IMG/VR virus record: IMGVR_UViG_3300005836_000012
Strand: one strand, 5' to 3'
DNA from: a virus
Length of the DNA: 64,000 nt
The position numbers were made by a program, and so were the translations under genes. The notes under the pieces are model-generated. The model saw nothing but the letters and a program-made list of their open reading frames with translations, was not told the DNA's origin and did no database searches. This document shows positions 1-64,000 of the stretch, piece by piece. How positions within the stretch are numbered: position 1 is the first letter of the stretch; every line of letters begins with the position of its first letter.

Positions 1-694
1 AACGACGATCCAGTGCCGGCCCGGCGACCTCGTGCTCGCTGGTGTTCCCGCAAGCCTCGTCACGACAACCGGCATCGACACGGTTGCGGGCCAGTTGATC
101 CTCGGCGGTGTTGGCGCCCAGGTGCAGGTCGCCGTCACAGTTCGCGCCGGCGTCGGGGCCATGGCGCTGTCCGGCATTCCGGCTGCGGTTCAGCTGGCCA
201 CCGGCATCAACGCGGTCCCTGGCGACCTGCTGCTGCATGGCCATCCGGCGCAGGTGCAGGCGACCGAGGCGACCGTCATCGGCTGCACGGTCGGTGACAT
301 GGCCCTCGCTGGGGTTCCATGCACGGTCAGCCTATTCGTCCCGCCGCCTCCTCCGCCACCCCCGACCGTTGGGCACGGTGGCGGCCCTGGCGGCACAGGA
401 CCGTCGCCGCAGCGGCGCAAGCGCCTGTCGATCGTCGTTGCCGATCGGGCTGTCGTCGTGGCCCGCCTCGCGGTCAGGACCACGGCGATCATCCGCCCGA
501 TGGCCGCGGCCGCGACAGAGGTGGCCGAGTCGGCGCGGCTGGCTGCTCAGGTTGTGCAGCGCGCGCACTGGCCATCGCGCCGCATGAGCGTCGAGGCGGC
601 CGAGACGTGCATCGAGAAGGGCGCCGGCGCGCGGATGGTGTCGGACGACCCGGACCTGCGCGAGTTCTTCGACCTGCTCGCGGAGATTGACTGA
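1..694 (+). CDS. Tandem-repeat (22-aa unit) protein, C-terminal part; 5' end outside window (codon phase starts at nt 2)
   Basis: Frame open from nt 2 to TGA 692-694. About five 22-residue G-x-L-x-L-x-G-V-P-A-type units, a Pro8 tract (nt 341-364), then a charged C-terminal domain. Stop overlaps the next ATG (TGATG). Same repeat family as ORF 63186-64000. Confidence 0.6.
   Translation, partial: TTIQCRPGDLVLAGVPASLVTTTGIDTVAGQLILGGVGAQVQVAVTVRAGVGAMALSGIPAAVQLATGINAVPGDLLLHGHPAQVQATEATVIGCTVGDMALAGVPCTVSLFVPPPPPPPPTVGHGGGPGGTGPSPQRRKRLSIVVADRAVVVARLAVRTTAIIRPMAAAATEVAESARLAAQVVQRAHWPSRRMSVEAAETCIEKGAGARMVSDDPDLREFFDLLAEID
2..334 (+). repeat. In-frame 66-nt (22-codon) tandem repeats, about 5 units
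   Basis: Units read directly: GDLVLAGVPASLVTTTGIDTVA / GQLILGGVGAQVQVAVTVRAGV / GAMALSGIPAAVQLATGINAVP / GDLLLHGHPAQVQATEATVIGCTV / GDMALAGVPCTVSLF. Confidence 0.8.
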
Positions 695-5939: not shown

Positions 5940-6545
5940 ATGAAGATGGGATACCACTGGAGGCCGGAAGGATCGGTGAAGGTGTCCAGCAAGATCAGCG
6001 GCGCTGTCGTCTACTTGAGCCGCGGATCGAAGACCGGGCGCCCCTCAGCGGTCGGATACCGCACTGCGGGCGGCAAGATGATGGCGTTCAACTACTCGTT
6101 CAAAAGCGACGAGAGACGCGCCGAGTACGTGGCCGAATTCCTCAAAGGGTGCGACGCGACCGTGGCTGCCAGGAAGGACAGAGCGGCGGCGCGCAAGGCC
6201 GACATGGCCAAGCCCCACAACCTGAAGGTCGGCGACGTGCTCCACGGTTCTTGGGGCTACGACCAGACCAACGTCGAATTCTGGGAAGTGACCAAGCTGA
6301 TCGGCAAGCGGATGGTCGAGATTCGCGAGAACGTGTGCGAGTCGATCGAGACTGGGTTCATGAGCGGCAACGCGGTCCCCCTGGCTGGCAAGTTCACCAG
6401 CAAGGCAGCCGAGGTGCGCAGAGTCAACGAGAGAAACAGCGTCAAGCTGAAGTCCTTCGGCTGCTACCTGAGCAAGGCTGACGAGGTGACGGTCGATGGC
6501 AAGAAGGTCGGATACAGAGCGATGGGCTGGACGAGCTACGCCTGA
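5940..6545 (+). CDS. Hypothetical protein
   Basis: 201 aa from ATG 5940 (AAAGGAG 6 nt upstream). The ORF-track start at 5871 lies inside the promoter. Confidence 0.6.
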   Translation: MKMGYHWRPEGSVKVSSKISGAVVYLSRGSKTGRPSAVGYRTAGGKMMAFNYSFKSDERRAEYVAEFLKGCDATVAARKDRAAARKADMAKPHNLKVGDVLHGSWGYDQTNVEFWEVTKLIGKRMVEIRENVCESIETGFMSGNAVPLAGKFTSKAAEVRRVNERNSVKLKSFGCYLSKADEVTVDGKKVGYRAMGWTSYA

Positions 6546-6602
6546 CTGGCCGAAAATGAGAGCGCGCGGGGTCATCCCGCGCGCAACAACAAGGAACGCA
6601 AA

Positions 6603-6974: not shown

Positions 6975-8588
6975 ATGTCCATGCAGGTCTTTGCCCAGAT
7001 TCGCAAGGTTGACGAGGCGAAGCGTCTCGTTTTCGGGCAAGCCGCCGCCGAGGTGGTCGACCACGCCGGCGAAATCATGGACTACGCCAGCAGCAAGCCG
7101 AATTTCCAGAAGTGGTCGGCCGATGTTGAGGCCGACAGCGGTGGCAAGTCGCTTGGCAATCTCCGGGCCATGCACGGAAAGGTCGCCGCCGGCAAGCTGG
7201 TCGGGATCGAGTTCCTCGACGACAAGAAGGCGATCGACATCTGCACCAAGGTGGTCGACGACGCCGAGTGGAAGAAGGTGCTGGAAGGCGTCTACACCGG
7301 GTTTTCCATGGGCGGCAGCTATGCCTCCAACCCGACAATCGAGAAGGTCGACGGCAAGGACGTGAAGCGCTACACCGCGATCCCGACCGAAATCAGTCTG
7401 GTCGATCGCCCGTGCATCCCCACGGCCAAGTTCTTCGACATCCAGAAGATGGACGGCAGCGTCGCACAGGTGGCGTTCAAGGAACCGGACCCGCTGGCCA
7501 AGCAAGCCGAGGCAGCCGACGACGGCGAGTCGATCCAGGGCACACCGGAGGAAGTCTCCGCGCTGTGCAAGGTGATGAACGACAAGGGCCTGTCCCTGGC
7601 CGATGTCCTGGCCAACCTGGAGAAGGTGGCGGCGCGCTCCGACGTGAACCCGAAGGAGGGCACCAGCGAATACGGCCAGGTCGCCTTCGCCGACGCGCGG
7701 AACAAGAAGTACCCGATCGACACCGCGGAGCACATCCGCGCGGCGTGGAACTACATCAACAAGGGCAAGAACGCCGGGAAGTACAGCGCCAAGGACGTGG
7801 CCGCGATCAAGTCGCGCATCGTCGGCGCGTGGAAGAAGCACATCGACAAGGAAGGCCCGCCATCCGCCGAGAAGATCGACGAGGCCACCGACCTGGAGAA
7901 GATGGACAAGGTGGAATTCACGACCGACCTGCGCAAGTCCCTGTGCGGGTGCCTGTGCGGCGTCCTGGATCAGCTGATGTACCTGCGCCAATCGGCGGCC
8001 TACGAGGCGTTCCAGGAGGGCGACAACAGCCCGCTGCCGGGCCGGATCGACGCCGTGATCGCTCTCACGGCCACGGTGCTGCAGGAAGCGGTCGGCGAGG
8101 CCGTCGCTGAAATCAAGGCGGGCACCGAAGCCGGCGGCGGAGAAGCTGGGGAAATGGAAATGGCCGAGGTTGCCGGGCTGCTGCGCAAGGCGCACGACGC
8201 TCCGCTGCTCGCCCTGCTGAAGGCGGAGCCCGAGGCCGCGCTGCGCGCCGCTGGCGAGGAAATCGCCAAGCTGCTGGCGCCGAAGGACGCGGCCCTGTCG
8301 GCCGACGCCGCGCTGGCCAAGCTGGTTTCCGACGCGATCGCGCCGCTGCAGAAGCAGCTGGAGGCGGCCGCAAGCAAGATCGATGCGCTGGAGAAGCAGC
8401 CAGCGCCGGCACGTGTCAGCCTGCGAGCGGTGGCCAAGTCCGCCGACACGGTGGCCGAGCACCACGAGGTGACCGGGGCCGAGGTCAAGCCAGTTCTGGA
8501 CGGCATGGGCAAGGCCAACGAGGCGGCGACGCTCATCAAGGCCATTCATCAACAGGGCGGCCGTCCGATGCTTCGGATGACCAAGTAG
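6975..8588 (+). CDS. Prohead protease (HK97/S78-like) fused to scaffolding domain
   Basis: N-terminus VFGQAAAEVVDHAGEIMD..LRAMHG..GVYTGFSMGG..EISLVDRPCIPTAKF (His/Ser protease layout). Mid KYPIDTAEHIRAAWNYI motif. Ala/Glu-rich coiled-coil C-terminus. Sits immediately upstream of the capsid gene. Confidence 0.7.
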   Translation: MSMQVFAQIRKVDEAKRLVFGQAAAEVVDHAGEIMDYASSKPNFQKWSADVEADSGGKSLGNLRAMHGKVAAGKLVGIEFLDDKKAIDICTKVVDDAEWKKVLEGVYTGFSMGGSYASNPTIEKVDGKDVKRYTAIPTEISLVDRPCIPTAKFFDIQKMDGSVAQVAFKEPDPLAKQAEAADDGESIQGTPEEVSALCKVMNDKGLSLADVLANLEKVAARSDVNPKEGTSEYGQVAFADARNKKYPIDTAEHIRAAWNYINKGKNAGKYSAKDVAAIKSRIVGAWKKHIDKEGPPSAEKIDEATDLEKMDKVEFTTDLRKSLCGCLCGVLDQLMYLRQSAAYEAFQEGDNSPLPGRIDAVIALTATVLQEAVGEAVAEIKAGTEAGGGEAGEMEMAEVAGLLRKAHDAPLLALLKAEPEAALRAAGEEIAKLLAPKDAALSADAALAKLVSDAIAPLQKQLEAAASKIDALEKQPAPARVSLRAVAKSADTVAEHHEVTGAEVKPVLDGMGKANEAATLIKAIHQQGGRPMLRMTK

Positions 8589-8630
8589 CAACCACCCAAC
8601 ACACCTTCCCCCCTCATCGAGGAGAGAGTC

Positions 8631-10157
8631 ATGAACGACAAAGTCTCTGCCGAAACGCTGAACCTGATCAAGGCGGCCCAGCTGTCCGGCACCAGCGAGG
8701 TCCCGCCCGAACTGATGAAGGCCTGGACCCAACCAGGCAGTGCGGTCAGCGGCATCAATGCCTACGACCTGGAAGCGCCAGCCAAGCAGCTCTATCCGGT
8801 CATCACGCCGCTGCGCAACGAGCTTCCGCGCGTCTCTGGCAAGGGCGGCATTCAGGCCAACTGGCGAGCGATCACCGGCATCAACACCACGAACCTCGCG
8901 CTGTACCTTGCGACCGGCAAGCGTGGTGGCGTGATGACGACCACGACCCAGGACTACACGGCGGCCTACAAAGGCATCGGCCTGGAGGATTCGGTCGAGT
9001 TCGAAGCCGACTATGCGGCGGAGTTCTTTCAGGACCTGAAAGCCACCGCAGTCGAGGGCCTGCTTCGCGCCACGATGATCGGCGAGGAGAAGATCATTCT
9101 GGGCGGCAACAACGGGCTGTCGCTGGCCAACACGGGGTCGATCACCCTGACCACGGCCAACACGGGCGGCACGCTGAACAACCAGTCCTACGGAGTCGGC
9201 TGCGTCGCGCTCACGTTCGAGGGCTTCCAACTCGCAAGCCTGACGACCGGCATTGTCCAGTCCTACACCCGGACGAACGCCGACAGTTCCACCGACCTGA
9301 TCAACGGCGGCACCAACCTGAAGGCCACCCAGGCCAACGTGACGGTGAACACCCAGGCCGGCACGATCAGCGCATCGGTGACCCCGATCGCAGGCGCTGT
9401 GGCGTACGCGTGGTTCTGGGGCGCCGCCGCCGCCAACTTGACGCTCGGAGCGATTACCACGATCAGCAGCGCACTGATCACGGCCAACGCGACCGGCACC
9501 GGGGCTGGCAACGGCACGGCGAACTACGCCGCGCTCGGCGCGACGAACAACAGCACGAACTCGCTGGCGTTCGACGGCTTTCTGACCATCGCGAGCCAGT
9601 CCGCGCTCGGTTCGTACCAGGGCACGCTGGCCGTTGGCGTCCCGGGCACGGGAACCGCACTGACCAGCGACGGCGCGGGCGGCGTCGCAGAAATCGAGAC
9701 GGCGCTGAAGTCCTTCTGGGACAACTACCGCTTGTCCCCCGATACGCTCTGGGTGTCGGCGCAGGAAATGAAGAACATTTCCGCCAAGGTGGTGTCAGCA
9801 TCCGCGTCCAACCCGCTGGCGCTGCGCTTCACGGTGAACGCCGACCAGAGCATGATGGCCGGCGGCATCATCGTGCGCGAGTACCTGAATCGCTACGCGA
9901 TGGACGGCAACACGGTGCTGAAGATCAGGCTGCACCCGAACATGCCGGCTGGCACGATGCTGTTCACCACGAGTCGGCTGCCCTACCCGCTGTCGAACGT
10001 GACGAACGTGGCGCAGATCAGGACGCGGCGCGACTACTACCAGATCGAATGGCCGCTGCGCACTCGGAAGTACGAATACGGCGTCTACGCCGACGAGGTG
10101 CTGCAGCACTACTTCCCGCCGGCGATCGGGGTGGTCACCAACATCGCCAACGGCTGA
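8631..10157 (+). CDS. Major capsid protein (HK97-fold type)
   Basis: 508 aa after protease-scaffold, strong RBS GAGGAGAG. LYPVITPLRNELPRV..ANW block typical of capsid proteins. Followed by a terminator-like hairpin. Confidence 0.75.
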   Translation: MNDKVSAETLNLIKAAQLSGTSEVPPELMKAWTQPGSAVSGINAYDLEAPAKQLYPVITPLRNELPRVSGKGGIQANWRAITGINTTNLALYLATGKRGGVMTTTTQDYTAAYKGIGLEDSVEFEADYAAEFFQDLKATAVEGLLRATMIGEEKIILGGNNGLSLANTGSITLTTANTGGTLNNQSYGVGCVALTFEGFQLASLTTGIVQSYTRTNADSSTDLINGGTNLKATQANVTVNTQAGTISASVTPIAGAVAYAWFWGAAAANLTLGAITTISSALITANATGTGAGNGTANYAALGATNNSTNSLAFDGFLTIASQSALGSYQGTLAVGVPGTGTALTSDGAGGVAEIETALKSFWDNYRLSPDTLWVSAQEMKNISAKVVSASASNPLALRFTVNADQSMMAGGIIVREYLNRYAMDGNTVLKIRLHPNMPAGTMLFTTSRLPYPLSNVTNVAQIRTRRDYYQIEWPLRTRKYEYGVYADEVLQHYFPPAIGVVTNIANG

Positions 10158-18034: not shown

Positions 18035-18459
18035 TGGATCAACGCCAGGCAGTAATCGCTGAAGCGCACCGGTGGATCGGCACGCCGTGGCACCACGGGG
18101 CCGAACTGATCGGGGCGGGGGTCGACTGCGCCCGGATGTTGAAGTGCGTCTATGTCGGCGCCGGCCTCGTTGTTGACTTTCCGATCGACCAGTACCCGCA
18201 CGACTGGATGCTGCACCGCGACGAGGAACGTTTCATCGCGATCGTCGCCAAGTACGCGACACAAGTTCAACGCCCGCTCCCTGGTGATATGGCGCTGTGG
18301 CGCTACTTCCGCACGTTCAGCCACGGCGGGATCGTCGTCGAGTGGCCGATGGTGATCCACGCGCATCGGCCGGTCGGCAAGGTCACGATGTCGAACGCCT
18401 ACGAGCGCCCGCTGGCTGGTCGTCCGGTGCAGTTCTGGCGCCCGCGGGGGCTCGAATGA
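18034..18459 (+). CDS. NlpC/P60-family tail peptidase (RcGTA g14-like)
   Basis: AHRWIGTPWHHGAELIGAGVDCARML contains the catalytic-Cys context of NlpC/P60. 141 aa. Confidence 0.7.
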   Translation: MDQRQAVIAEAHRWIGTPWHHGAELIGAGVDCARMLKCVYVGAGLVVDFPIDQYPHDWMLHRDEERFIAIVAKYATQVQRPLPGDMALWRYFRTFSHGGIVVEWPMVIHAHRPVGKVTMSNAYERPLAGRPVQFWRPRGLE

Positions 18460-21194
18460 GCGGCCTGTTCGGCAAGAAGACGACGATCAACAACGACGCG
18501 CCGCGCATCGGCGCGGTTCGCGTTCAGAGCAGCACGCAGGGCATCCCGATCGCGATCGTCTACGGGATGACGCGGGTGTCGCCGAACCTGCTGCAGTACA
18601 CGGACTTTCTGGCCACCCCGCAGACGACGAGCCAGAAGTCAGGCAAGGGCGGCGGTGGCGTGACGACGGTCACCACCACCTACAGCTACCAGGCTGCCGT
18701 CATGCTGGGCTTGAGCGAGGGGCCGCTGCCGAACAACGGCACGACCGACATGATCGGCACGGCATGGGTCGACAAGCAGGTCACCAGCGGTGCGAATCTG
18801 GCGCTGACGGAGTTCCGCGGCACCTACGCTCAGGCCGGCTGGTCATTCATGGCGGCACAGCACCCAGCCGATGGCAGGAGCCTGCGCGGGCAGGCCTACG
18901 TCGCGCGCAGCGACTTCCCGTTGAGCACTAATGCCGGTCTTCCCAACCTGTCATTCGAGCTTCGCGGCTTGCTGTGGCAGGACGACTGCGAACCAGACAT
19001 CAACGTTGGCCGCCTCCTTCCAGACCTGCTCTCGAACGTGAACTACGGGGCGCTGTACAACCACATCGGCGCGCTGACCGACATGGTCGCCTACTGCGAG
19101 GCGGCCGGGTTCAAGGTCAGCCCCAACTACAACGAGCAACGGCCGGCGAGCGAAATGGTCGCCGAGCTGTGCAAGATCGCGAACAGCGCGCCCTTCTGGA
19201 GCGAGGGGGTACTGAAGGCGTCGCCCTACGCTGACCAGATCGTCACGCGCACTCCGTTTGCCCCGCTTCCAGGCACCGACTCCTACACGGAGGACCTGAA
19301 CCCGGCCAACTTCTCGGTCATCAGCGGCAACTCGTCCCTGTTCACATACGACAGCGGAACCTACGGCAATCAGGTGACGATCGCGAGCCAGAACAGCGCA
19401 AACATCGCGCTGATGCGGCACACCGTCAGTTCGCACGCGATCGAAACCTTCACGGTCAAGTTCATCCGCAACAACTCCAACACGGACGACGCGGCGTCGA
19501 TGGTCCTGAAGGCGTCAGGCAACGCGGCCCTCGGAATCGTCCCGCAGCGCGAGCAAGGAATCGACACCTTCAAGCGGCCGTATCTTTCGCTGCCAGAAGG
19601 GCTGGTTCTGATCGGCACCACGGAATTGCCGCTGCACGTCTGGTTCACGCTCAACGTGAACATCCTGCCAGGGGTCGATGCCAGTACCTACGCGCTGATC
19701 TACACCGCGAACGGCGTGTCGTTCAACTCCGGGACGATCCACACCGACTATGCGGGCCTGAACTACAACCAGGTCGACCTGACCGCCGACAGCTCCGGGC
19801 TCACGTCGTCTGTCACCTACGCATGCATCGCGACAACGGCTGGCATAGGGGCTTGCGCGCTTGGCAATACGCCGGTGACCTACACGCCGAACCTGACGAT
19901 TCAGTACGACCTGAGCACCGCAAACGCCACATCCGGTGGCAGCGACTTCATCAGCGCCCACGGCGATCCCCCGATCAAGGTCAAGCGCACACGTCAGGCG
20001 GACGCCTACAACGTGATCCAGGTGTCGTGTCTTGACCGCAGCGACGCGTACAACAAGGCGGTCGTCGAGGCGAGCGATCTGGACCTCGTGCAGCGCTTCG
20101 GGCGCCGCGTAGCGCCGGTCATCCAAGCCGAAATGATCTGCAGCACGGACACCGCGCGCGCCGTCGCGCAAACCGCCTTGCAGCGCTCGGTCTACCTGCG
20201 CAACACGTACGAGTTCACGGTCGGCTGGCGCTACTCGCGGCTGGAGCCGATGGACCTCGTGACGCTGACGGACGCGCAGACCCAGCTGGCAGCCAAGCCG
20301 GTACGCATCACCGCAGTGCAGGAGAACGACAGCGGCGCGCTCGACATGGAGGCCGAGGACTTGTTCATCGGCGTCTCGACACCTGGCGCCTACCAGCAGC
20401 AAAGCGGTTCAGGCTACACCACGAACACCGGTATCGATCCAGGCAACGCGAATGCGACGGTGGTCTTTCAGCCGCCCACGGAGTTGAGCGGCACGCCGCA
20501 AATCTGGATCGGCGCGTCCGGTGGCCCCGACTGGGGTGGCGCTGAAATCTGGGGCAGCGACGACGGCACCACGTTCGCGCGCGTCGGGATCATCACGGCG
20601 CCGGCGCGCTACGGCGTGGTCACCGCGAACTGGCCGGCGAGCGCAGACCCGGACACGACGGGGAATCTTGCGGTAAGCCTGGCAAACAGCGGCGGCGATC
20701 TGACGAGCGCCACCCAGTTGCAGGCGAACGGTGGGGACACGCTCTCATATGTCGGTGCGAACGGATCGGGCGAGCTGATCGCCTACACCACGGCCAACCT
20801 CACCGGGACGCACAACTACTCGCTGACCAGCTACATCCGCCGCGGCCTCTACTGCAGCTTCTCGACGGCGCACCTGGTCGGCGAGTCGTTCATGCGGCTG
20901 GACGGGGCCGTCGCCAAGGTCGACATCGATGCGGGCCGCGTCGGGCACACGCTGCACTACAAGCTGCGCAGCTTCAACCAAGTCGGCGGTGGTCTTCAGG
21001 ACCTGTCGACGGCGATCGAGTTCAGCTACGTCGTCCAGCCGCTCGGCATTGTCGTGACCAACGGCGTGGTCCCGTCCACAATCCAGGCCGGGGAGCTGCT
21101 TTGCGTGCCCGAGGGGACGCAGTATCAGGTGCTCGGTCGAATGAAGGACTACGGGCGGATCAACCTGCACGGGCGACTGATCGTCGGCGCCTAG
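18456..21194 (+). CDS. Host-specificity / central tail fibre protein (gpJ / RcGTA g15-like)
   Basis: 912 aa from ATG 18456 (ATGA overlap). N-terminus MSGLFGKKTTINNDAPRIGAVRVQSSTQGIPIAIVYG typical of Phage-tail_3 proteins. Confidence 0.7.
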   Translation: MSGLFGKKTTINNDAPRIGAVRVQSSTQGIPIAIVYGMTRVSPNLLQYTDFLATPQTTSQKSGKGGGGVTTVTTTYSYQAAVMLGLSEGPLPNNGTTDMIGTAWVDKQVTSGANLALTEFRGTYAQAGWSFMAAQHPADGRSLRGQAYVARSDFPLSTNAGLPNLSFELRGLLWQDDCEPDINVGRLLPDLLSNVNYGALYNHIGALTDMVAYCEAAGFKVSPNYNEQRPASEMVAELCKIANSAPFWSEGVLKASPYADQIVTRTPFAPLPGTDSYTEDLNPANFSVISGNSSLFTYDSGTYGNQVTIASQNSANIALMRHTVSSHAIETFTVKFIRNNSNTDDAASMVLKASGNAALGIVPQREQGIDTFKRPYLSLPEGLVLIGTTELPLHVWFTLNVNILPGVDASTYALIYTANGVSFNSGTIHTDYAGLNYNQVDLTADSSGLTSSVTYACIATTAGIGACALGNTPVTYTPNLTIQYDLSTANATSGGSDFISAHGDPPIKVKRTRQADAYNVIQVSCLDRSDAYNKAVVEASDLDLVQRFGRRVAPVIQAEMICSTDTARAVAQTALQRSVYLRNTYEFTVGWRYSRLEPMDLVTLTDAQTQLAAKPVRITAVQENDSGALDMEAEDLFIGVSTPGAYQQQSGSGYTTNTGIDPGNANATVVFQPPTELSGTPQIWIGASGGPDWGGAEIWGSDDGTTFARVGIITAPARYGVVTANWPASADPDTTGNLAVSLANSGGDLTSATQLQANGGDTLSYVGANGSGELIAYTTANLTGTHNYSLTSYIRRGLYCSFSTAHLVGESFMRLDGAVAKVDIDAGRVGHTLHYKLRSFNQVGGGLQDLSTAIEFSYVVQPLGIVVTNGVVPSTIQAGELLCVPEGTQYQVLGRMKDYGRINLHGRLIVGA

Positions 21195-21204
21195 GGAGCA
21201 TCGA

Positions 21205-21726
21205 ATGTCTGAAATCGTCCTGCAGAACGAAGCCAGTCCGGGAGCGCTCGGCGCCAATCTCGTGGCGATCTTCATCGATGCGAACGGCGTGCTGTCCTAC
21301 GTCGGGAATGACGCAATAGTCAAGCAGCCGCTGACGAGTGCCAGCTTCGCCAACGTGGCCTATGCCAACCAGGTGAACACATTCACCAAGGCGCAGGCGG
21401 TCACGCCCGGGACGTTCGCCAACACGGGTAACACGACGCTGGACGCCAACGCGTCAAACATCTTCCGCCCGGTAGGAGGCCAGTTGACTGGCAATGTCGG
21501 CCTGCCCAACCCGTCGAACCTCCGCGATGGGCAGACGTTCACGTTCTTCCTGCAGCAAGGATCGGGCGGCAACCTGACGATGACCTACGGAAGCCTGTTC
21601 AAGTTCGCCACCGCGAACGAGCGGACGCTGACGGCAGCGGCGAGCGCCCGCGATGTCGTGAGCTGCGTCTACGACGCGACGGCAAACCTGATCTTCTGCG
21701 GTGCGCGGCAGAACGTGGCCAGCTGA
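21205..21726 (+). CDS. Hypothetical tail-fibre-associated protein
   Basis: 173 aa, Asn/Thr/Gly-rich, directly after the host-specificity gene. Confidence 0.5.
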   Translation: MSEIVLQNEASPGALGANLVAIFIDANGVLSYVGNDAIVKQPLTSASFANVAYANQVNTFTKAQAVTPGTFANTGNTTLDANASNIFRPVGGQLTGNVGLPNPSNLRDGQTFTFFLQQGSGGNLTMTYGSLFKFATANERTLTAAASARDVVSCVYDATANLIFCGARQNVAS

Positions 21727-22565
21727 TGTACACCGTCCCCATCGGGCTGTTCACGTCCGCTTTAGGGTCGGCCGGCAACGATCCGAACGCGCAAGCGATC
21801 TATGGAAACCTCGTTGCGTGGTGGACGCTCAACGACAGCGCCAACACGCCCACCTACATCGACAGCTTTGCCAGCCACAACATGACGCTGCGAAGCAGCA
21901 GCGGCACGCTCAACACCAGCACGCTGTCGGTCGGCGGCGGGATCGGCGGATCAAATGCCTCTGGCATGGGCGGGTCGCCGACGCGCACTGCCTACGTGCC
22001 GCGAGCAGATACCGTGCTGGACCTGGGGGACTTCGACTTCACGTTCGGAGGCTGGTTCAAGACCCAGGCGGCTGCTGCGACGACAGCGTTTCTGATGGGG
22101 CGCGTCGGCGGCCACGCGAACGGGGTGTTCAATCAGTTGCGCGCGTGGATTTTCATCGACAACGACACCTTCATCAAAGCGCGCTACAGCTCGGATGGCA
22201 GCAACCTGACTGCGACGGCCAACTCTGGCATCGCCTTCAGCAACAGCATCAACAACCTCTGCGTGATGACGTACGACAAGACCGGGGGCAGGCTGCACCT
22301 GCGCATCGGGAACCAGAACGGCAGCATCACGCACGCCAACGTGGCGCTAGGGGCCGCTATCGCCACGGCCAACGTCGACACCAACTTCACGATCGGGGCC
22401 GGCCTTCAGAACGACAGCGTCACCGACCTCACGACCAACCGCGAGGGCGTATTCACCGCAGACGAGTGCTTCGTGGCCAACCTGGCAATGACGGACGCCC
22501 AGTTCACCTACATGACGAACAGCGGTTCAGGCAAGACGTTCACACAACTGGTTGCCGATCAGTAG
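21726..22565 (+). CDS. Concanavalin-A-like lectin/LamG-domain tail protein
   Basis: LDLGDFDFTFGGWFK...NNLCVMTYDKTGGRLHLRIGN pattern typical of LamG/laminin-G jelly rolls. Confidence 0.5.
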   Translation: MYTVPIGLFTSALGSAGNDPNAQAIYGNLVAWWTLNDSANTPTYIDSFASHNMTLRSSSGTLNTSTLSVGGGIGGSNASGMGGSPTRTAYVPRADTVLDLGDFDFTFGGWFKTQAAAATTAFLMGRVGGHANGVFNQLRAWIFIDNDTFIKARYSSDGSNLTATANSGIAFSNSINNLCVMTYDKTGGRLHLRIGNQNGSITHANVALGAAIATANVDTNFTIGAGLQNDSVTDLTTNREGVFTADECFVANLAMTDAQFTYMTNSGSGKTFTQLVADQ

Positions 22566-56733: not shown

Positions 56734-58473
56734 ATGGCCGCGCGCGAGGATATGGGTCAACAGGTCGCGCCAGGGGTCATCCAGCGGGTGAGCCAGGGGC
56801 TGTCGTACATCGTCAGCGGCGTCACCCCTGCCAGCTGGTTCGGCCCGAGCCAGCCGCTGCGCCCGCTCGTACAGGACCAGACCGAAGGCCGGCAGTTCGA
56901 CTACCCGGTCGGCTACAACCTGCGGATCACGCCGCGCGAGGGGGAGATTCCATTCTCCATGCTGCGCAGCTTCGCCGATGGATACGACCTGCTCCGTCTT
57001 GCCATCGAGACGCGCAAGGACCAGATCGAGGCCTACGACTGGGAAATCGTCCCCGCTGACCCGAAGGCCCCGAAAGGGGCGATGAAGGACGAAATCAAGG
57101 CGGTCACCGACTTCCTGCAGAAGCCGGACAAGGAACTGCTATGGCCGCAATGGCTGCGCCGGATGATGGAGGAGCTGTTCGTCATCGACGCGATGGCGTT
57201 CTACCCGCGCGCCGACATGGGGGGCCACCTCTACGCGCTGGAGGTGCTGGACGGCGCATCGCTCAAGCGCGTGCTGGACCTGGAAGGCCGCACTCCCATG
57301 CCGCCATCGCCGGCCTATCAGCAAATCCTGCACGGCATCCCGGCCAACGACCTGACCACGGACGACATCACCTACATCATGCGCAACCCGCGCGTGAATC
57401 GGGTCTATGGACTGTCGCCCGTAGAGCAAATTTTGATGACCGTGAACATCGCGATCCGCCGCCAGTTGACCCAGTTGTCGAGTTACACCGAGGGCACGAT
57501 GCCCGAGGCGCTGGCCCAGGTTCCAGAGTCGTGGACCAGCAAGATGATCGCGGATTTCCAGACGTGGTTCGACGGGTTGCTGGCCGGCAACATCGCGCTG
57601 CGCCGGCGAATCACGTTCATCCCGAAGCTCGACAACATCTACATGCCGCGCGCCGAGGTGATGAAGGACGAATACGACGACTGGCTGGCCCGCATCGTCT
57701 GCTTCGCCTTCAGCATCAGCCCGACAGCCCTGATTAAGAACCCGAACCGCGCGACGAGTCAGTCGATGTCCGACACGGCGAAGGAGGAGGGCCTGCAGCC
57801 GCTGCTGAAGTTCATCGGCGCCGTGATGACGCAGCTGATCACGCAGTACATGGTGCCGGGCCTGCGCTTCCAATTCGCGACGGTCAACCAGACGAATCCG
57901 CTGGAACAAGCCCAAATCGACGACCTCTACATCAAGGACAAGGTGCTGACGCCGGACGAGGTTCGGGAGGGCCTGGGGCGCGAGCCACTGACCCCGGAAC
58001 AGCGCGCAGAGGCGTTTCCAGCTCCCCCGCCGATGCTGGCGCCGGGACAGGAGAAACCAGAGGACTCGGCGATCAACCTGCCGAACCCGGACAAGCCATC
58101 AGCGACGGCCGTGCCGCGGACGAACACGGCGACGGACATCGAAAAGGCGCTGGGCGGCCTGCAGTTGCATGTCCACGCCTCCCCGGTGACCGTGGACGCC
58201 CCGGTCCAGATGGGCGACACGCACGTGCACGTTCCGAAGCAGACGGCCCCGGCGGTCACGGTCGGGGCTCCGATCGTCAAGGTCTACGGCGACACGAAGG
58301 TCCAAGCGCCACCGATGCCGATGAAGAAGGTGGTCCGAGCGCGCCGCGATCCGCACAGCGGCGAGTTGTTCGGCGAGGTGACGAGCGAGGTGGTCGACAG
58401 CGCCGCGGTCACGCAGTCGCTGGCCAAGGCGCTGCAGCAACACAGGGGGGCCGACGATGCCGAAACTGACTAA
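56734..58473 (+). CDS. Portal protein
   Basis: 579 aa after TerL. Conserved-looking core (FSMLRSFADGYDLLRLAIETRKDQI, VYGLSPVEQILMTVNIAIRRQ). Pro/Ala-rich C-terminal tail. Confidence 0.75.
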   Translation: MAAREDMGQQVAPGVIQRVSQGLSYIVSGVTPASWFGPSQPLRPLVQDQTEGRQFDYPVGYNLRITPREGEIPFSMLRSFADGYDLLRLAIETRKDQIEAYDWEIVPADPKAPKGAMKDEIKAVTDFLQKPDKELLWPQWLRRMMEELFVIDAMAFYPRADMGGHLYALEVLDGASLKRVLDLEGRTPMPPSPAYQQILHGIPANDLTTDDITYIMRNPRVNRVYGLSPVEQILMTVNIAIRRQLTQLSSYTEGTMPEALAQVPESWTSKMIADFQTWFDGLLAGNIALRRRITFIPKLDNIYMPRAEVMKDEYDDWLARIVCFAFSISPTALIKNPNRATSQSMSDTAKEEGLQPLLKFIGAVMTQLITQYMVPGLRFQFATVNQTNPLEQAQIDDLYIKDKVLTPDEVREGLGREPLTPEQRAEAFPAPPPMLAPGQEKPEDSAINLPNPDKPSATAVPRTNTATDIEKALGGLQLHVHASPVTVDAPVQMGDTHVHVPKQTAPAVTVGAPIVKVYGDTKVQAPPMPMKKVVRARRDPHSGELFGEVTSEVVDSAAVTQSLAKALQQHRGADDAETD

Positions 58474-58846
58474 GGCCGGCCGCACCCTGATCCGTGACAC
58501 GGTGGCTGACAAGCTGCGAGGCGGCCGGCATGTCACCTATGACGGCGACGGGCGCGAGCTGGTCGAGTGCGCGATCCCGGCGACGTGGGAGCCCTACGGC
58601 GACGGCGACTGCAGCTTCATCTTCAAGGGCCTGGCGCAGGGCAAGTGCTCGCGCATGGGCATGGCGACGGCCTGGGCCGCGTTTCCGCCAGGCGACATTC
58701 ACAAGACGCAGGCGCTGATCGGTGGAACAATCGGGCGCACGCTGTCGAAGTGGGTGGACGTTGCGCTGGAGGATCAGCAGCTGTACGTCGGCATGCTGGT
58801 CGACATCGACCAACTTGCCTACACAATCGAGTTCCCGAAGGAGTGA
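58457..58846 (+). CDS. Hypothetical protein
   Basis: 129 aa, overlaps the portal 3' end by 17 nt. Confidence 0.5.
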   Translation: MPKLTKAGRTLIRDTVADKLRGGRHVTYDGDGRELVECAIPATWEPYGDGDCSFIFKGLAQGKCSRMGMATAWAAFPPGDIHKTQALIGGTIGRTLSKWVDVALEDQQLYVGMLVDIDQLAYTIEFPKE

Positions 58847-58849
58847 CGT

Positions 58850-59323
58850 ATGGCACGAGGCGACATTCACTGGTTCAATTCGGCTGGCCTTCAGGGCTTC
58901 AAGAAGTTCTACGACCTGTCGAGCGAGACGCTGAAGCTGGGCATCGTCAACGGGGCGAACGTCCCAACGGTCAACACGCCGAATCCGGCCTGGGGCGCGA
59001 ACGGCACGATCAACTTCAGCGCCGACCAGGTCACGACGAACGCCGGCGGCTACAGCGGGCCGATCACGCTGGCATCGGTCACATTCACCCAAGTGGCCAA
59101 CCTCGCCACTCTCGCGGCGAACAGCGTGGTGATCGCGCAGGACAGCGGCAACGGCTTCTCCAACGCCAACTTCGGGATCATGTACGACGACACGCACGCG
59201 AACAAACCCGCCTTCGCGTTCGTCGACCTAGGCGGCCCGATCGGCAACGCGAACGGGCCGGTGAACATCAACTTCAACAGCAGCGCTGTCAGCGGCCCGA
59301 TCCTCACGACGACCGCCCCCTGA
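58850..59323 (+). CDS. Hypothetical Asn/Gly/Thr-rich (structural-looking) protein
   Basis: 157 aa, GGAG upstream. Confidence 0.5.
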   Translation: MARGDIHWFNSAGLQGFKKFYDLSSETLKLGIVNGANVPTVNTPNPAWGANGTINFSADQVTTNAGGYSGPITLASVTFTQVANLATLAANSVVIAQDSGNGFSNANFGIMYDDTHANKPAFAFVDLGGPIGNANGPVNINFNSSAVSGPILTTTAP

Positions 59324-59347: not shown

Positions 59348-60784
59348 GTGGGCTACTCAGACGAGCTGTTCGCGCGAAAGCTGCAGCACAGCGGGATAGC
59401 CCCAACGCCGTCCCCGGACCCTGTGTTTCCGCTCTCGGCTGATGCCGGGGGCCGGTATCTGAAGCAGAACGACGGCACGCCGTTTCCGATCCTCGGCCGC
59501 ACATCGTGGGCGATCGTGTCGCTCTCGGCAGCGAACTACCGCGCCTATATCGACGACACGGCAGAGCGCGGATACAACACGATCGAGTGCGCGATCCCAC
59601 ATCACTGGCCGACCACAAACCAGCCGCCATTCGGCGGAGACGGAACGCTTCTTCCTTTTACGCATCGTCTTGATGGGTCGGATTACGCAGGGTCGCTGAC
59701 GTACTCAAACATCAACAACGAGGCGGCAGATTTCACCACGCTGAGCGAGCCATACTGGTCGTTCGTCGATGCCTTGCTGGACTACGCACGCGGCAAGGGC
59801 ATCCTGGTTCTGCTGTTCCTTTGCTACAACGGCAGCGTTGACACCCAAGGATGGATGGCTGAAATGGTCGCCAACGGAGCGACCAAGATGCAGGCATACG
59901 GCGCTGCGCTAGGCGCTCGATGGGCTGCGAAGACCAACATCGTATGGATGCTCGCTGGTGACTTCGGGGGCCCGAGCGCTCCGTATAGCGGCCCGCAGGA
60001 CACAGTGGAAAGCGCGTTCGTCACCGGCCTGACCGGCGTGACGAAGGTCTGCAACTTCTACAGCGCCGAACTCAGCGACGAGTCATCGTCAAGCGACGCG
60101 TCAACCACGAACCTGCAGGCAGCCATCAACTTGAATGGTGGGTACTCTCACGGCGGCGCCAGCGCGTTTTGGTGCAGACATGCATGGGACGCAAACCAGG
60201 GGCCGTCGTTCCTGCTCGAAGCTATCTACGATGAGGAGGGGCCTGACGGAAGCGATGAGAACAGCAACGCCACACAGCCGGTGCGTCGCGCGAACTGGTG
60301 GGGATGGCTGAAGTCGATCGGCGGGCACGTTCTAGGTAATGGGTATGTGTGGAAGTTCCTGCCAAGCGGCACGCCTCCCGGAACCGACAACTACGCGAGC
60401 CACCTAAACACGGCCTCGACGCAGCAGATGACGCTGATGGCTGCGTTCATTAAAAGCATCGAATGGTGGCGGCTGGTCCCGTCAGAGACAGTCGTGACCT
60501 CTGGCGGCGGGAATATCACCGATGTGCCGGCAGCCGACTACGTTCCTGCTGCGTACACCAGTCTCGGTGATCTACTGGTGGCATACATGCCGACCGGATG
60601 GGGAGGCAGCACCGGCATCGACATGACCGTGATGAGGGGAACAGCGACCGCGCAATGGTTCGATCCATCGGACGGCACGTACCACTCGATCGGATCGATC
60701 GCAAACACCGGATCGCACACGTTCACATCCCCAGGCAATAACGCGGCCGGTCAAGCTGACTGGGTTCTGAGGCTCGACGCATGA
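59348..60784 (+). CDS. Glycoside-hydrolase-like protein (DUF4038/GH140-type TIM barrel + collagen-binding-like C-domain)
   Basis: GTG start. RYLKQNDGTPFPILGRTSWAI, GYNTIE, NIVWMLAGDFGG. C-terminal WWRLVP...AQWFDPSDGTY...ADWVLRLDA as in DUF4038 plus Collagen_bind_2 proteins. Confidence 0.6.
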   Translation: MGYSDELFARKLQHSGIAPTPSPDPVFPLSADAGGRYLKQNDGTPFPILGRTSWAIVSLSAANYRAYIDDTAERGYNTIECAIPHHWPTTNQPPFGGDGTLLPFTHRLDGSDYAGSLTYSNINNEAADFTTLSEPYWSFVDALLDYARGKGILVLLFLCYNGSVDTQGWMAEMVANGATKMQAYGAALGARWAAKTNIVWMLAGDFGGPSAPYSGPQDTVESAFVTGLTGVTKVCNFYSAELSDESSSSDASTTNLQAAINLNGGYSHGGASAFWCRHAWDANQGPSFLLEAIYDEEGPDGSDENSNATQPVRRANWWGWLKSIGGHVLGNGYVWKFLPSGTPPGTDNYASHLNTASTQQMTLMAAFIKSIEWWRLVPSETVVTSGGGNITDVPAADYVPAAYTSLGDLLVAYMPTGWGGSTGIDMTVMRGTATAQWFDPSDGTYHSIGSIANTGSHTFTSPGNNAAGQADWVLRLDA

Positions 60785-61518
60785 GCATTGCATTCGTCCA
60801 ATCCGTGACTGGTGCCGGGGCAACGCTCGCGATCAACGGCGTGGTCCAGGGACACCTTCTGGTGATTCAGGACACTTTCTTCAAGGCGGGCTCAAGCTCC
60901 TATACGGAAACCAAGCCGAGCGACGCCAACGGAACGGTACAGGATGCTGTGCGTGTGGGCAGCGCATTGTTCAACCTCGATTCGGTCGGCACGTCCATCT
61001 GCTTCGTCGAGAATGCGTCGGCAGGAACGCATACGGTGACACCTGATGCGACGACCGGATCGCGGCACCTCACGATCACCGAGTTCAGCGGAATCCTGCA
61101 TAGCGGATCGCTGGATCAATCGAATCATGGGGAGTCGAACACTGCTGACATCACGTCAAGAAGCACGAACAGCACCGCGAACACGACGCAGAACGACGAG
61201 CTACTGATCGCTGGACTCGCGCTTGCTGCGTTCACAGGATCAGCGAACGTCGGCTACACAGACCCTCCCACAGGCGGATGGACGAAGCTGCAGTCATTCG
61301 TGAATGACTCGTCGGACGTGGCTGGATTCCACGCCTATCAGATCGTCGCCGCAACTGGCCCGCAAAGCTGCACGTTCAACTGGACAGCGCACGAGGCAGC
61401 AATGGGAGCGCAGGCAGTCATTGCCACGTTCAAGGCCGGCGACGACAGCACGGCCGACACCAAACTCGTCAAGCAGGGAACGCGTCCACGGGCCTTCGGC
61501 CCAGGCATCGCACGTTGA
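60781..61518 (+). CDS. Hypothetical protein
   Basis: 245 aa, ATGA overlap. Visibly lower GC3 than the genome average. Confidence 0.5.
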   Translation: MSIAFVQSVTGAGATLAINGVVQGHLLVIQDTFFKAGSSSYTETKPSDANGTVQDAVRVGSALFNLDSVGTSICFVENASAGTHTVTPDATTGSRHLTITEFSGILHSGSLDQSNHGESNTADITSRSTNSTANTTQNDELLIAGLALAAFTGSANVGYTDPPTGGWTKLQSFVNDSSDVAGFHAYQIVAATGPQSCTFNWTAHEAAMGAQAVIATFKAGDDSTADTKLVKQGTRPRAFGPGIAR

Positions 61519-61531
61519 AAAGGAGCACCAC

Positions 61532-62089
61532 ATGTCACGCCAATTCTGGGCCGAACTGATCGCATGGGCGACAGCCGATGGCACTGCCATCGCGAGCAGC
61601 ACGTCGGAGACGATCGTCTTTCCGAACGTCACCATCCCCGGCAACTACATGGCGGACGGCCGCGTGCTGCGGCTCACCGCGACGGGGCGCCTCGGCACCA
61701 CCGGCACGCCCACGATGCGCTTCCGACTGCGATGGGGCGGCGTTGCTGGGACGCTGATCTGGGACACCAACACGATCACCTGCGGCAGCGGGGTCACGGC
61801 CTCGCAGTGGCGCGTGATGATCGAGATTCAGACGCGCTCGAACGGCGCCAGCGGCACGCTGTTCGCCATGGGGGAGGGCATCATCGGCAGCGCCCTTGCG
61901 ACCACCGTTGGCAGCGCAACCGGGGCGCCAGCGTCAGGCGTCTACAGCTCTGGCGGGAACAACACGCCGGCCGCTGTGACGTGCGACCTGACGGCAGACA
62001 CGGCCCTGTCCTTCACAGCCGCATGGGGCACGTCGAACGCGTCGAACACGCTGACCGGCCACAACTACTTCCTGGAGTCGATGAACTGA
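61532..62089 (+). CDS. Hypothetical beta-rich protein
   Basis: 185 aa from ATG 61532 (AAAGGAG 7 nt upstream). Confidence 0.55.
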   Translation: MSRQFWAELIAWATADGTAIASSTSETIVFPNVTIPGNYMADGRVLRLTATGRLGTTGTPTMRFRLRWGGVAGTLIWDTNTITCGSGVTASQWRVMIEIQTRSNGASGTLFAMGEGIIGSALATTVGSATGAPASGVYSSGGNNTPAAVTCDLTADTALSFTAAWGTSNASNTLTGHNYFLESMN

Positions 62090-62481: not shown

Positions 62482-63189
62482 ATGCCCACGCGCTTCTACC
62501 TGCAGGCCAGCGGATCGATAAAGGCGCCGAACAACCCGGCGTTCGATGCAGGGTGGGAGCAGACCGGACAAGCCGGCCGGCTGCCGATGACGCTGAAGAA
62601 GCTACTGAAAGCGCCAACGGCTCTCGCGAACTGGACCGCGATCACCGTCCCGATCACGACGACGCAGCAGATTCTCGGCAATCAGTTCGTCTCGGATCAG
62701 GTCTTCGATCCGGTCCGCCTGGATGCCTCTGTGCTGTTTTCGATGGTCCTGCGCGGGCTCGAAAACGCGACCACGAACAACGTCTTCCTGGCCTATGTGC
62801 TCCGGGCCTTCACGGCAGACGGGCTCACCTCGCTTGGCACGCTTGCATCGAGCATGACGAATGCCGGCACCGAGTTCGTGGCAACGGCAGCTACCCGCAT
62901 CTTCGGAAACGGCACGACAACCATTGCGCTGACAGCCACGACCATCAGCCAGCCATGGCGGCTGGTGATCGACATCGGCGGGCATGCTCAAGCGCCGACC
63001 GTGGCGGGTTCGTACACTTATCGAACCGGGTCCAGCGCCGCCACCGATTTCGCCCTCACTTCAGCGCTGACGACTGACCTGAATCCGTGGATCGAGCTAT
63101 CGACTAACCTGAACGCACTGGTGATGAACAACTACCAGTCGATCAAGGCAGACAGCGGAATCAGCACCTCACTCGGGGCTGTGCGATGA
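62482..63189 (+). CDS. Hypothetical beta-rich (jelly-roll-looking) protein
   Basis: 235 aa, Thr/Ala/Asn-rich. Stop overlaps the next ATG. Confidence 0.5.
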   Translation: MPTRFYLQASGSIKAPNNPAFDAGWEQTGQAGRLPMTLKKLLKAPTALANWTAITVPITTTQQILGNQFVSDQVFDPVRLDASVLFSMVLRGLENATTNNVFLAYVLRAFTADGLTSLGTLASSMTNAGTEFVATAATRIFGNGTTTIALTATTISQPWRLVIDIGGHAQAPTVAGSYTYRTGSSAATDFALTSALTTDLNPWIELSTNLNALVMNNYQSIKADSGISTSLGAVR

Positions 63190-64000
63190 GCTTCCCGCAG
63201 CGGCGAGTTCCCAACTTCAGCTTCGCGCGCGTCGAGCCGGCGCCGCCGAGCGGAGCCACGGATGTCTTCTGCAGCGTCGGGAACCTGATTCTCGGGCGCG
63301 TCAACGCCACCATTGCCGTCCCGCTGACCATCAACGCGAGCATCGGCAACCTCGCTCTCGGTTCGGTCAATGCCGCGGTGAAGATTGCCACGGCCGTCAA
63401 TGCGACCCCAGGGCAGTTGACGCTCGGCGCCAAGAACGCCAGCGTGGCCATCGCCACGGCCATCAACTGCGGCGTCGGCAACCTCGTGCTCGGCAGCGTG
63501 GCGGCCAGCGTCAGCACAAGCGCGGCCACCACGATCGCGGCGACGGTCGGCGACCTCACGCTCGGCGCGGTGCAGGCCGCTGTCGTCACTCAAACGACGG
63601 TCGGCGCTTCTCCGGGTTCGCTGGTGCTTGGGGGAGTTCCGGCCTCGGTGGCGATCCAAACCACGATCGCGGCCACGGTTGGCCAGCTGGTGCTTGGCGC
63701 AAAACAGGCCGCGGTGGTCCTTCCGACCGTTGTGCCGGCTGCACCCGGCGCGCTGGTGCTGGGTGGGACTCATGCGGCGGTCGCATCGCAGACTACCGTG
63801 GACGCGTCTACGGGCAGCCTCGTGCTCGGTGGCGTCCCGGCCGCGCTCGTGCTGCCTACCGTCGTTCAGGCATCCAGCGGCGTGCTGCTGCTTGGCGGCG
63901 TGCCGGCATCCGTGTCGCTGCCGACCGTCATCGCCTGCTCGGTCGGCCAGCTCGTGCTGGGCTCCGTTGCCGCCGACGTAGCGCTGGGCAGCGAAACGAC
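63186..64000 (+). CDS. Tandem-repeat (22-aa unit) protein, N-terminal part; open at the window edge
   Basis: Not in the ORF track (no stop in the window). ATG 63186 overlaps the upstream TGA. MSFPQRRVPNFSFARVEPAPP... then 11 repeat units to nt 64000. Confidence 0.65.
   Translation, partial: MSFPQRRVPNFSFARVEPAPPSGATDVFCSVGNLILGRVNATIAVPLTINASIGNLALGSVNAAVKIATAVNATPGQLTLGAKNASVAIATAINCGVGNLVLGSVAASVSTSAATTIAATVGDLTLGAVQAAVVTQTTVGASPGSLVLGGVPASVAIQTTIAATVGQLVLGAKQAAVVLPTVVPAAPGALVLGGTHAAVASQTTVDASTGSLVLGGVPAALVLPTVVQASSGVLLLGGVPASVSLPTVIACSVGQLVLGSVAADVALGSET
63270..64000 (+). repeat. In-frame 66-nt tandem repeats, about 11 units
   Basis: Examples: GNLILGRVNATIAVPLTINASI / GNLALGSVNAAVKIATAVNATP / GQLTLGAKNASVAIATAINCGV / GNLVLGSVAASVSTSAATTIAATV .... 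Confidence 0.8.

Follow-up and report, generated by a model that had tools for sequence, protein, structure and literature searches.

What does a phage do with a long repeat protein encoded between its portal and its MuF gene? The question arises in IMG/VR virus record IMGVR_UViG_3300005836_000012, a stretch of 64,000 nucleotides that we analysed whole and call the window. In it, a gene for a protein of 22-residue tandem repeats (the stalk gene) runs off the right end, resumes at the left end and stops on the first base of a gene for a MuF-like head protein. We are confident that the product is a member, lacking a head domain of its own, of a large and unannotated family of phage stalk proteins that share a 22-residue 'GxLxL(T)G(F)xPxV' repeat. 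Judging from the domains that its relatives carry, it is most likely an external fibre. The fuller proposal makes the product the stalk-and-anchor subunit of a modular fibre on the outside of the virion, with the phage head or neck as its probable site, and we regard this proposal as evenly poised.

A repeat gene across the ends of the assembly

The last six nucleotides of the window (AACGAC) are identical to the first six, and by this terminal overlap the window is a circular or permuted phage assembly. Because of the overlap, the genome measures about 63,994 bp and the joined product is 500, not 502, amino acids (aa) long. Its two parts are an open reading frame (ORF) at 63186–63998 (+), open at the 3′ end, and one at 2–694 (+), open at the 5′ end and in matching frame; across the join, both the reading frame and the register of the repeats are uninterrupted. 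Gene order fits the join, with TerL (55013) and the portal (56734) at the right end, followed from the left end by MuF (694), protease/scaffold (6918), capsid (8631), adaptor, tape measure and tail genes. The protein consists of a 23-aa leader, 16 repeat units, eight consecutive prolines (Pro8), a Gly-rich stretch, an RRKR motif, a helical domain and an acidic Leu/Phe tail. Its features, as located by a hidden Markov model (HMM) of the unit and by AlphaFold2 (AF2) models with their predicted local distance difference test scores (pLDDT), are these:

63186–63254, + strand: start of the stalk gene and 23-aa leader (MSFPQRRVPNFSFARVEPAPPSG); start codon and stop of the preceding 235-aa gene overlap (ATGA)
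63255–63986, + strand: repeat units 1–11, of 22 or 24 residues each; unit HMM matches, three strands per unit in the AF2 model
63995–64000, + strand: terminal overlap AACGAC, identical to window positions 1–6
2–334, + strand: repeat units 12–16; unit HMM matches, three strands per unit in the AF2 model of the C-terminal part (C-part), pLDDT about 65–71
341–424, + strand: hinge, with Pro8 (341–364), Gly-rich GHGGGPGGTG (371–400) and basic cluster QRRKR (410–424)
425–691, + strand: C-terminal module, with hydrophobic stretch LSIVVADRAVVVARLAV, helices and acidic/hydrophobic tail DDPDLREFFDLLAEID (644–691)
692–694, + strand: stop codon TGA; base 694 is common to the MuF start (TGATG), and GGAG lies 7 nucleotides upstream of that ATG
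694–1509, + strand: stand-alone MuF-like minor head protein, 271 aa; PF04233 E 3e-8, phrog_2468 E 5e-24

The MuF start codon (694–696) has one base in common with the stalk stop, and its product matches PF04233 Phage_Mu_F at 34.8 bits (cut-off 29.6); by this arrangement the MuF gene is translationally coupled to the stalk gene. The leader ends in VEPAPPSG, which aligns by eye with ...LDVPAVTTG and ...LEVPPAPG before unit 1 in the homologues P0001 and P0021, so that the window stalk appears to retain the short junction sequence found there. An initial annotation of this DNA had read 11 units before the window end and about five more after its start, then Pro8, a Gly-rich segment and a charged domain (all found at 341–691), a stop overlapping the start of a MuF-family gene (TGATG at 692–696, with the PF04233 match downstream), and N-A-T or N-A-S tripeptides in the first units (residues 40, 50, 72 and 84). 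All of these held.

The unit HMM, iterated on the stalk protein and two homologues, found 16 units at i-Evalues of 1e-5 to 1e-8 each, 11 of them before the window end and 5 after its start; over six frames of the window it found no unit outside the stalk gene. Successive units are spaced by 22 residues in 12 of 15 cases and by 24 in the other three, and residue identity at a lag of 22 is 0.374, against 0.109 ± 0.016 (maximum 0.162) in 1000 shuffles. Nucleotide identity at a lag of 66 is only about 0.50, which explains why Tandem Repeats Finder, run on the DNA, reported no repeat at the stalk gene. By this measure the repeats are old and maintained at the protein level, not a recent duplication. 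The consensus, x-T-x-[IV]-x-[AC]-x-x-G-x-L-x-L-G-G-V-x-A-x-V-x-x, with G9 and L13 invariant, puts alternating inward-facing hydrophobic residues on three strands and Gly or Pro at the turns, a pattern that fits a three-sided, single-chain β-solenoid with its own hydrophobic core. At unit position 6, Cys replaces Ala in 5 of 16 units (residues 29, 95, 251, 275 and 365). The same substitution occurs in P0001 and, by eye, at a comparable position in nearly every unit of P0011; it could mark a disulfide site, a metal-binding site or merely a site for a small residue.

We modelled residues 1–271 with AF2 from a 26-row alignment of stalk segments (pLDDT 74, predicted template modelling score 0.64). 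DSSP assigned three short strands to each 22-residue unit from residue 26 to 267, and at this moderate model confidence the array has the coils of about 18–25 residues, with two or three short strands stacked in register, that define β-solenoids. The C-part model adds five more coils, again with three strands per unit (C-part residues 3–111, pLDDT about 68). Over the hinge, at about window positions 337–445, it shows no secondary structure, with pLDDT below 50 from about position 413, and it has low-confidence helices in the last 80 or so residues. The top Foldseek matches of the stalk model in the PDB, at best E 0.39 and with query-normalised TM-scores of at most 0.48, were mostly β-helices (PfbA, an antifreeze protein, the two-partner secretion (TPS) domains of HxuA and HMW1, autotransporter passengers, TibA and phage depolymerases). 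A regular β-solenoid or fibre had been one suggestion of the initial annotation, and the three modelled strands per unit, together with the alternating hydrophobic consensus, strengthen it: the stalk is most likely a β-solenoid rod, and our confidence in this prediction is fairly high.

A family of stalks with a shared end module

To define the family, we built a profile of 44 positions, or two units, from the window protein, P0001 and P0002 (profile A1) and scored it against 1.84 billion representative proteins from public metagenomes, clustered at 50% identity. Matches at E ≤ 1e-3 came from 1,837 clusters, of which 755 reached E ≤ 1e-10 and 97 reached E ≤ 1e-30. The best 150 of the 1,837 clusters are 190–2103 aa long with 3–24 matched stretches, and in the proteins retrieved the units are most often 22 residues apart. 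Relatives that carry a source name are all labelled 'hypothetical protein'. No family in Pfam, PHROGs or NCBIfam matches either half of the stalk protein at E ≤ 0.1; neither the repeat nor the C-terminal module nor the companion gene product described below has a family of its own there, and no family recurs consistently among the relatives. PDB sequence searches with the unit profile, P0001 and the companion profile returned nothing meaningful. The repeat thus fits no known family, as had first been supposed, yet it is common to all 1,837 clusters.

Other searches returned little. A word-indexed protein search retrieved only two homologues of the stalk protein and none for its C-terminal 121 residues alone; the stalk gene had no nucleotide or tblastn match among 50,697 phage records, and IMG/VR searched by DNA pattern and by protein gave no match. 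In cultured phages and prophages the only matches, all weak, were Gordonia phages Gibbles and RobinSparkles and two M. abscessus prophages. Gibbles gp37 and RobinSparkles gp41, the only examples from cultured phages, are annotated 'minor tail protein', and the Gibbles repeat gene (L007, 8788–10158) stands apart from the tail module, flanked by lysin A and lysin B. Among 185,579 representative prokaryote genomes, a scan with P0016 found no relative and the exact decapeptide LTLTGFAPTV occurs in only 6 contigs, all of them from metagenome-assembled genomes and 3 with several units. Since both scans were nearly empty, the family appears essentially absent from cellular genomes.

What the relatives carry besides repeats points outwards. 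Of 53 relatives, four have Laminin_G_3, and Apiosidase with Collagen_bind_2, Beta_helix, GDSL lipase and Ig were each seen once; in the closest homologue, P0001, a PKD/Ig domain and an N-terminal domain of about 230 aa precede the 12 units. By homology, most relatives have a variable head of lectin, Ig/PKD, glycosidase or esterase type at the N-terminus of the stalk, and such domains can also lie inside it. One of them, P0052 (996 aa), has its apiosidase-like glycosidase domain in mid-stalk, with repeats on both sides; the stalk therefore tolerates the insertion of an internal domain. The N-termini are the variable part of the family.

The other end has a recurrent form. Of 159 sequences tested, a set that includes the window protein and some duplicates, 41, or about a quarter, finish with an acidic cluster and a Leu/Phe-rich run, for example ...DDDEDVLMLLL, ...EEEEALLLLLLL and ...DEEDELVTLLLTL. 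The order after the last unit (alignment A4) is GG(G), an Arg/Lys cluster, a short hydrophobic stretch, a variable charged helical region and the tail; the hydrophobic stretch is our reading of the sequences by eye, such as PIIVTIDGQDFVV in P0100. The window protein has this layout in GHGGGPGG, QRRKR, helices and the tail given above, in a closer version common to P0001 and P0021, and over the entire C-part, with the repeats counted in, it shares 38% identity with P0001 (E 6e-31). Two origins or uses of the module were considered and dropped. A linker left from an ancestral portal–MuF fusion was rejected, as there is no similarity to the fusion protein of phage Polewnik. A capsid-targeting signal, in the form of the same acidic/Leu tail on the scaffold, the protease or other window proteins, was sought and none was found; scaffold-like proteins of the window phage and of related phages have basic ends.

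Gene neighbourhoods could be read at 13 loci, the window included, and in 8 of the 13 the stalk gene lies inside a head-assembly module, in several head-gene backgrounds:

Directly upstream of MuF and overlapping it: the window, L003 (P0001) and L011 (P0021, PF04233)
Between MuF and Peptidase_S78/Phage_capsid: L015 (P0036)
Between SU10_portal and a scaffold-like gene: L004 and L010, in L010 followed by SU10_MCP
Close upstream of a scaffold-like gene and of SU10_MCP, in a stretch that gave no portal domain call: L008
Ahead of a 295-aa gene and the P22 coat gene: L006
Just upstream of a terminase–portal–coat block, abutted by a separate 234-aa Laminin_G_3 gene: L009
In the tail module after the tape measure, a member without the acidic/Leu tail motif: L005 (P0012)
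Position not assigned: L014 (in a fibre/lectin cluster), L001 and Gibbles

In 7 of the 13 loci (the window and six others) a companion gene of about 150 aa, phrog_644-like, stands near the stalk gene, alongside several different head-gene sets. Its copies are at L001 9537–10001 (E 3e-23 to phrog_644), L004 9175–9642, L006 711–1157, L008 2356–2802, L010 6152–6583 and L015 2075–2551, and a profile of these six finds window ORF 58850–59323 at E 1.4e-10 among the genes of the block and 6.8e-9 among all window ORFs. The companion has no relative in Pfam or the PDB.

Some of the head modules also hold candidate modification genes. L008 (984–2366) and L010 (4759–6162) encode a methyltransferase with an MptE-like (Maf-type) domain; a cut-off gene at L006 1–708 resembles these at its C-terminus by eye; L015 encodes GT25 (a faint match) and GT11 glycosyltransferases at 5967–6599 and 8036–8824; and in L006 and L008 a radical-SAM/SPASM gene adjoins the adaptor gene. 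Such sugar- and methyl-transferase and radical-SAM/SPASM genes in head modules suggest modification of virion proteins.

Mounting, cargo and competing explanations

With no head domain on the stalk chain, where only the 23-aa leader precedes unit 1, the neighbouring genes become of interest. The relevant genes between portal and stalk are:

56734–58473, + strand: portal, 579 aa, without a MuF domain and forming the left border of the island; phrog_2662 positions 26–444 of 717
58850–59323, + strand: companion, phrog_644-like; companion profile E 1.4e-10 (alignment A5)
59348–60784, + strand: free-standing glycoside hydrolase, Apiosidase-like with Collagen_bind_2; PF13204 E 1e-37, PF12904 E 7e-11
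60781–61518, + strand: 'head' gene standing on its own, 245 aa; homologue of P0089's N-terminal domain
62482–63189, + strand: 'head' gene standing on its own, 235 aa; homologue of the N-terminal domain that P0036 and P0111 carry fused to their stalks

Each of the last three has a counterpart fused to a stalk in another phage. The glycosidase matches P0052 (phmmer E 3.7e-57) at target positions 396–844, within repeats that span 195–964. The 245-aa protein matches P0089, which consists of head, 10 units and an acidic/Leu tail, at phmmer E 4.4e-13 (query 71–226 to target 77–226), before the target's repeats at 270–489. The 235-aa protein aligns with P0036 over 244 columns and into the first unit (BLASTP E 6e-10, phmmer 1.4e-11); its own last 17 or so residues (SIKADSGISTSLGAVR) resemble a repeat unit. 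The separate Laminin_G_3 gene that abuts the stalk gene in L009 is a parallel to these free heads. From this pattern of fusion and fission in other phages, the three neighbouring genes probably supply heads in trans to the head-less stalk. A programmed −1 frameshift that would join the 235-aa gene to the stalk was rejected, since the sequence has no slippery heptamer, the stalk frame opens only at 63108, and the end of the head domain would be lost in any such fusion.

The island itself may be a late arrival. The closest cultured relative by portal, Brevundimonas phage Polewnik (43.6% identity), has a 774-aa portal–MuF fusion (L013, 8869–11193) whose residues 542–774 are homologous to the window MuF (E 1e-19); it has no island, and the fusion gene is followed directly by head genes. 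The window has 6,214 bp between the portal stop and the start of MuF, and it seems that a 6.2-kb accessory island split an ancestral portal–MuF fusion gene. The G+C content at third codon positions is 0.70–0.78 in the three head/glycosidase genes (0.70 in 60781–61518) versus 0.85–0.92 in core structural genes, which suggests more recent acquisition and would fit horizontal transfer of exchangeable modules. Two other island genes, at 61532–62089 (185 aa) and 58457–58846 (129 aa), have no relatives in the libraries or among about 160 family proteins; by eye, the 185-aa product looks like a β-sandwich virion protein and has N-x-S/T sequons.

We propose the following arrangement. The 16 units would fold as a triangular β-solenoid rod, about 8 nm long at 4.8 Å per coil if the AF2 model and general β-solenoid geometry hold, and the Pro8/Gly hinge would link it to the family-conserved C-terminal module, the putative attachment or oligomerisation end, in which the hydrophobic stretch is modelled as coil and its form is unsure. 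The free 235-aa, 245-aa and apiosidase-like proteins would dock on the stalk, as gene fusion and fission suggest, and the fibre would hold glycan-binding or glycan-degrading modules outward for the first contact with the host surface. Attachment to the head or neck by way of the C-terminal module is the best-supported placement, on the evidence of gene neighbourhoods. Decoration of the capsid or the portal vertex, a placement raised in the initial annotation, has gained plausibility from relatives in head modules of several head-gene backgrounds; the location itself is something we infer.

The stalk itself might be glycosylated, a speculative step. ORF 48120–50576 matches PF18071 HMW1C_N at 28.2 bits (cut-off 27), and the genome also encodes a dehydratase and an aminotransferase. 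The stalk contains five N-x-S/T sequons where 1.5 would be expected (shuffling gives p about 0.01, and the A-[ST] pattern of the unit itself promotes sequons): the four N-A-T/N-A-S sites in units 1–3 given above and N-F-S at residue 10. Pfam finds neither TPS nor Fil_haemagg in the stalk protein. Speculatively, then, the stalk is one candidate substrate of the phage's HMW1C-like glycosyltransferase and no more than one. The 279-aa product of 21726–22565, after the central tail fibre gene, has the genome's densest N-x-S/T content (9, or 32 per 1000 aa, versus 4.8 expected) and is another candidate.

Several observations count against this arrangement. The AF2 stalk model is of moderate confidence, with pLDDT dropping from about 85 to about 69 along the array, and a monomer model cannot separate a single-chain solenoid from a trimeric β structure. 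The model of the C-part, which includes the proposed anchor, is poor (pLDDT 60.6 overall, below 50 in parts), too poor to justify a fold search. The Foldseek comparison that the initial annotation had suggested, run on the stalk model, gave no significant match (best E 0.39 in the PDB and 0.022 in BFVD, where nothing useful was found), even if its top PDB matches are mainly β-helices. No other window protein has a similar acidic/Leu tail that would name a partner for the module. The family is not confined to head modules, with P0012 in a tail module and Gibbles gp37, a 'minor tail protein', between lysins. The whole case for head docking comes from fusions seen in other phages. The sequon excess in the stalk is modest and owes something to the A-[ST] pattern of the unit, and other window proteins have more sequons (10 in the capsid protein, 12 in a tail protein, 9 in ORF 21726–22565).

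The alternative that survives best, though we think it unlikely, is a side fibre of the tail or neck, in which the C-terminal module binds the adaptor, the collar or the tail and the head module is merely a permissive site of insertion for the gene. P0012 lies in a tail module after the tape measure, P0004 among ricin-lectin, collagen-like and PKD fibre genes, and the sole cultured examples are annotated as minor tail proteins; yet none of these has the acidic/Leu tail module, and all seven readable relatives that have either the tail or the window-type C-terminal module lie in or next to head modules. The long fibres of phage SU10 attach to the adaptor beside the portal (PMC9509320), a precedent for such mounting. 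The window phage, for its part, has separate tail-tip genes at 18297–22565.

We judge it quite unlikely that the protein is instead packaged in the head and ejected, its C-terminal module or its coupling to MuF targeting it to the procapsid near the portal for release with the DNA, as has been proposed for cargo associated with MuF. The stop of the stalk gene overlaps the MuF start in three phages, a protein like InPase and zeta-toxin, a candidate cargo, comes after MuF, relatives with the acidic/Leu tail stand just upstream of scaffold genes, and the basic cluster and acidic tail could bind DNA or the basic C-termini of scaffold-like proteins. Against this, the ConA-like lectin, PKD/Ig, glycosidase and GDSL esterase domains of relatives make sense outside the particle and would probably be too bulky to pass the tail channel in folded form, and the C-terminus carries neither a toxin nor an enzyme domain. 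With MuF cargo genes the stalk gene has only translational coupling in common: it lies upstream of MuF and encodes no toxin or enzyme domain. An island that entered a portal–MuF fusion better explains why the stalk gene adjoins MuF; the L015 stalk gene follows MuF, and no MuF domain was called in the SU10-like stretches examined. Ejection by way of MuF had been the second suggestion of the initial annotation, and it is weakened because relatives have external, host-surface domains and because the island accounts for the MuF adjacency.

It is improbable that the C-terminal module is an intramolecular chaperone or trimerisation domain of a trimeric β stalk attached elsewhere, perhaps cleaved at the Gly/basic site after folding as in endosialidase-type fibres: the region is predicted helical, the GGG stretch and basic cluster form a conserved boundary and the monomer AF2 confidence is only moderate, but Pfam gives no Peptidase_S74 or other chaperone-domain signal, the unit pattern fits a single-chain three-sided solenoid with its own core, and, because the N-termini are variable, no other conserved part could serve as the anchor.

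Extending the modular fibre to the family, the members with the acidic/Leu tail could be widespread, undescribed fibres of the head or portal vertex in uncultured phages, with a near-universal C-terminal anchor to capsid or portal, a phrog_644-like base protein, a β-solenoid stalk whose length can vary, and swappable lectin or enzyme heads fused or in trans, N-glycosylated here by the HMW1C-like enzyme. We offer this tentatively and consider it doubtful as a whole.

Significance and likeness to known systems

Little is understood about phage fibres outside the tail tip. A very large family of 1,837 clusters, in no curated library, is now defined with a modular grammar of variable head, 22-residue stalk, conserved end module and small companion, and across several head-gene backgrounds it has a recurrent home in the head-assembly operon. 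If the anchoring proposal is right, thousands of 'hypothetical proteins' in viromes would gain an annotation, head- or neck-mounted adhesion fibres would gain a testable candidate, and the engineering of phage binding would gain a natural scaffold for swappable heads. The stalk family is also a concrete candidate substrate for the phage's unexplained asparagine glycosyltransferase; if the fibre is that substrate, this would be a virus that makes its own N-glycosylated adhesin.

The closest structural comparison is with β-helical adhesins and tailspikes, the top structural neighbours of the AF2 model (the TPS domains of HMW1 and HxuA; EspP, Hbp and TibA; PfbA; the depolymerase of Klebsiella phage P560). 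They, like the stalk model, are single-chain parallel β-solenoids with coils of about 20 residues and three strands per coil, and they hold or form surface-binding modules, as we propose for the stalk. HMW1 and TibA are glycosylated by dedicated cytoplasmic glycosyltransferases, and the window phage encodes an HMW1C-like enzyme. Unlike them, the stalk has no TPS or autotransporter secretion domain, no catalytic groove and no sequence match or significant structural match to this class (best Foldseek E 0.39); its repeat is far more regular, and its family is essentially confined to phages.

As a proposed accessory head fibre that makes the first contact with the host, the stalk resembles T4 Hoc, phi29 gp8.5 and the fibres of Agrobacterium phage 7-7-1 and Caulobacter phage phiCbK. 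The capsid-binding part of T4 Hoc is at its C-terminus. We detected no homology of the stalk to these head fibres and decoration proteins, and it differs from them in being a predicted β-solenoid, not Ig domains or a coiled coil, and in that its place on the virion is putative. For the capsid fibres of phage 7-7-1, the constituent proteins are still unidentified (PMC12796354).

Virion glycosylation occurs in mycobacteriophages Corndog, Che8 and Myrna (Freeman et al. 2023, cited in PMC12363180). These systems glycosylate capsid and tail-tube proteins and, as far as the sources say, have no such repeat stalk. The resemblance lies in accessory genes after the portal in the head operon and in relatives with glycosyl- and methyl-transferases; in the window, by contrast, the glycosylation operon (HMW1C-like enzyme, amino-sugar) is at about 44.6–53.5 kb, 8–18 kb from the island and not inside it.

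Portal–MuF fusions, finally, are represented by phrog_2662, the 'putative portal protein' of Polewnik and the 'portal and MuF-like fusion protein' of Arthrobacter phage Sonali, and their halves match the window portal and the window MuF. Unlike in these fusions, the halves in the window are separate genes, 6,214 bp apart, and it is the stalk gene that provides the translational coupling into MuF.

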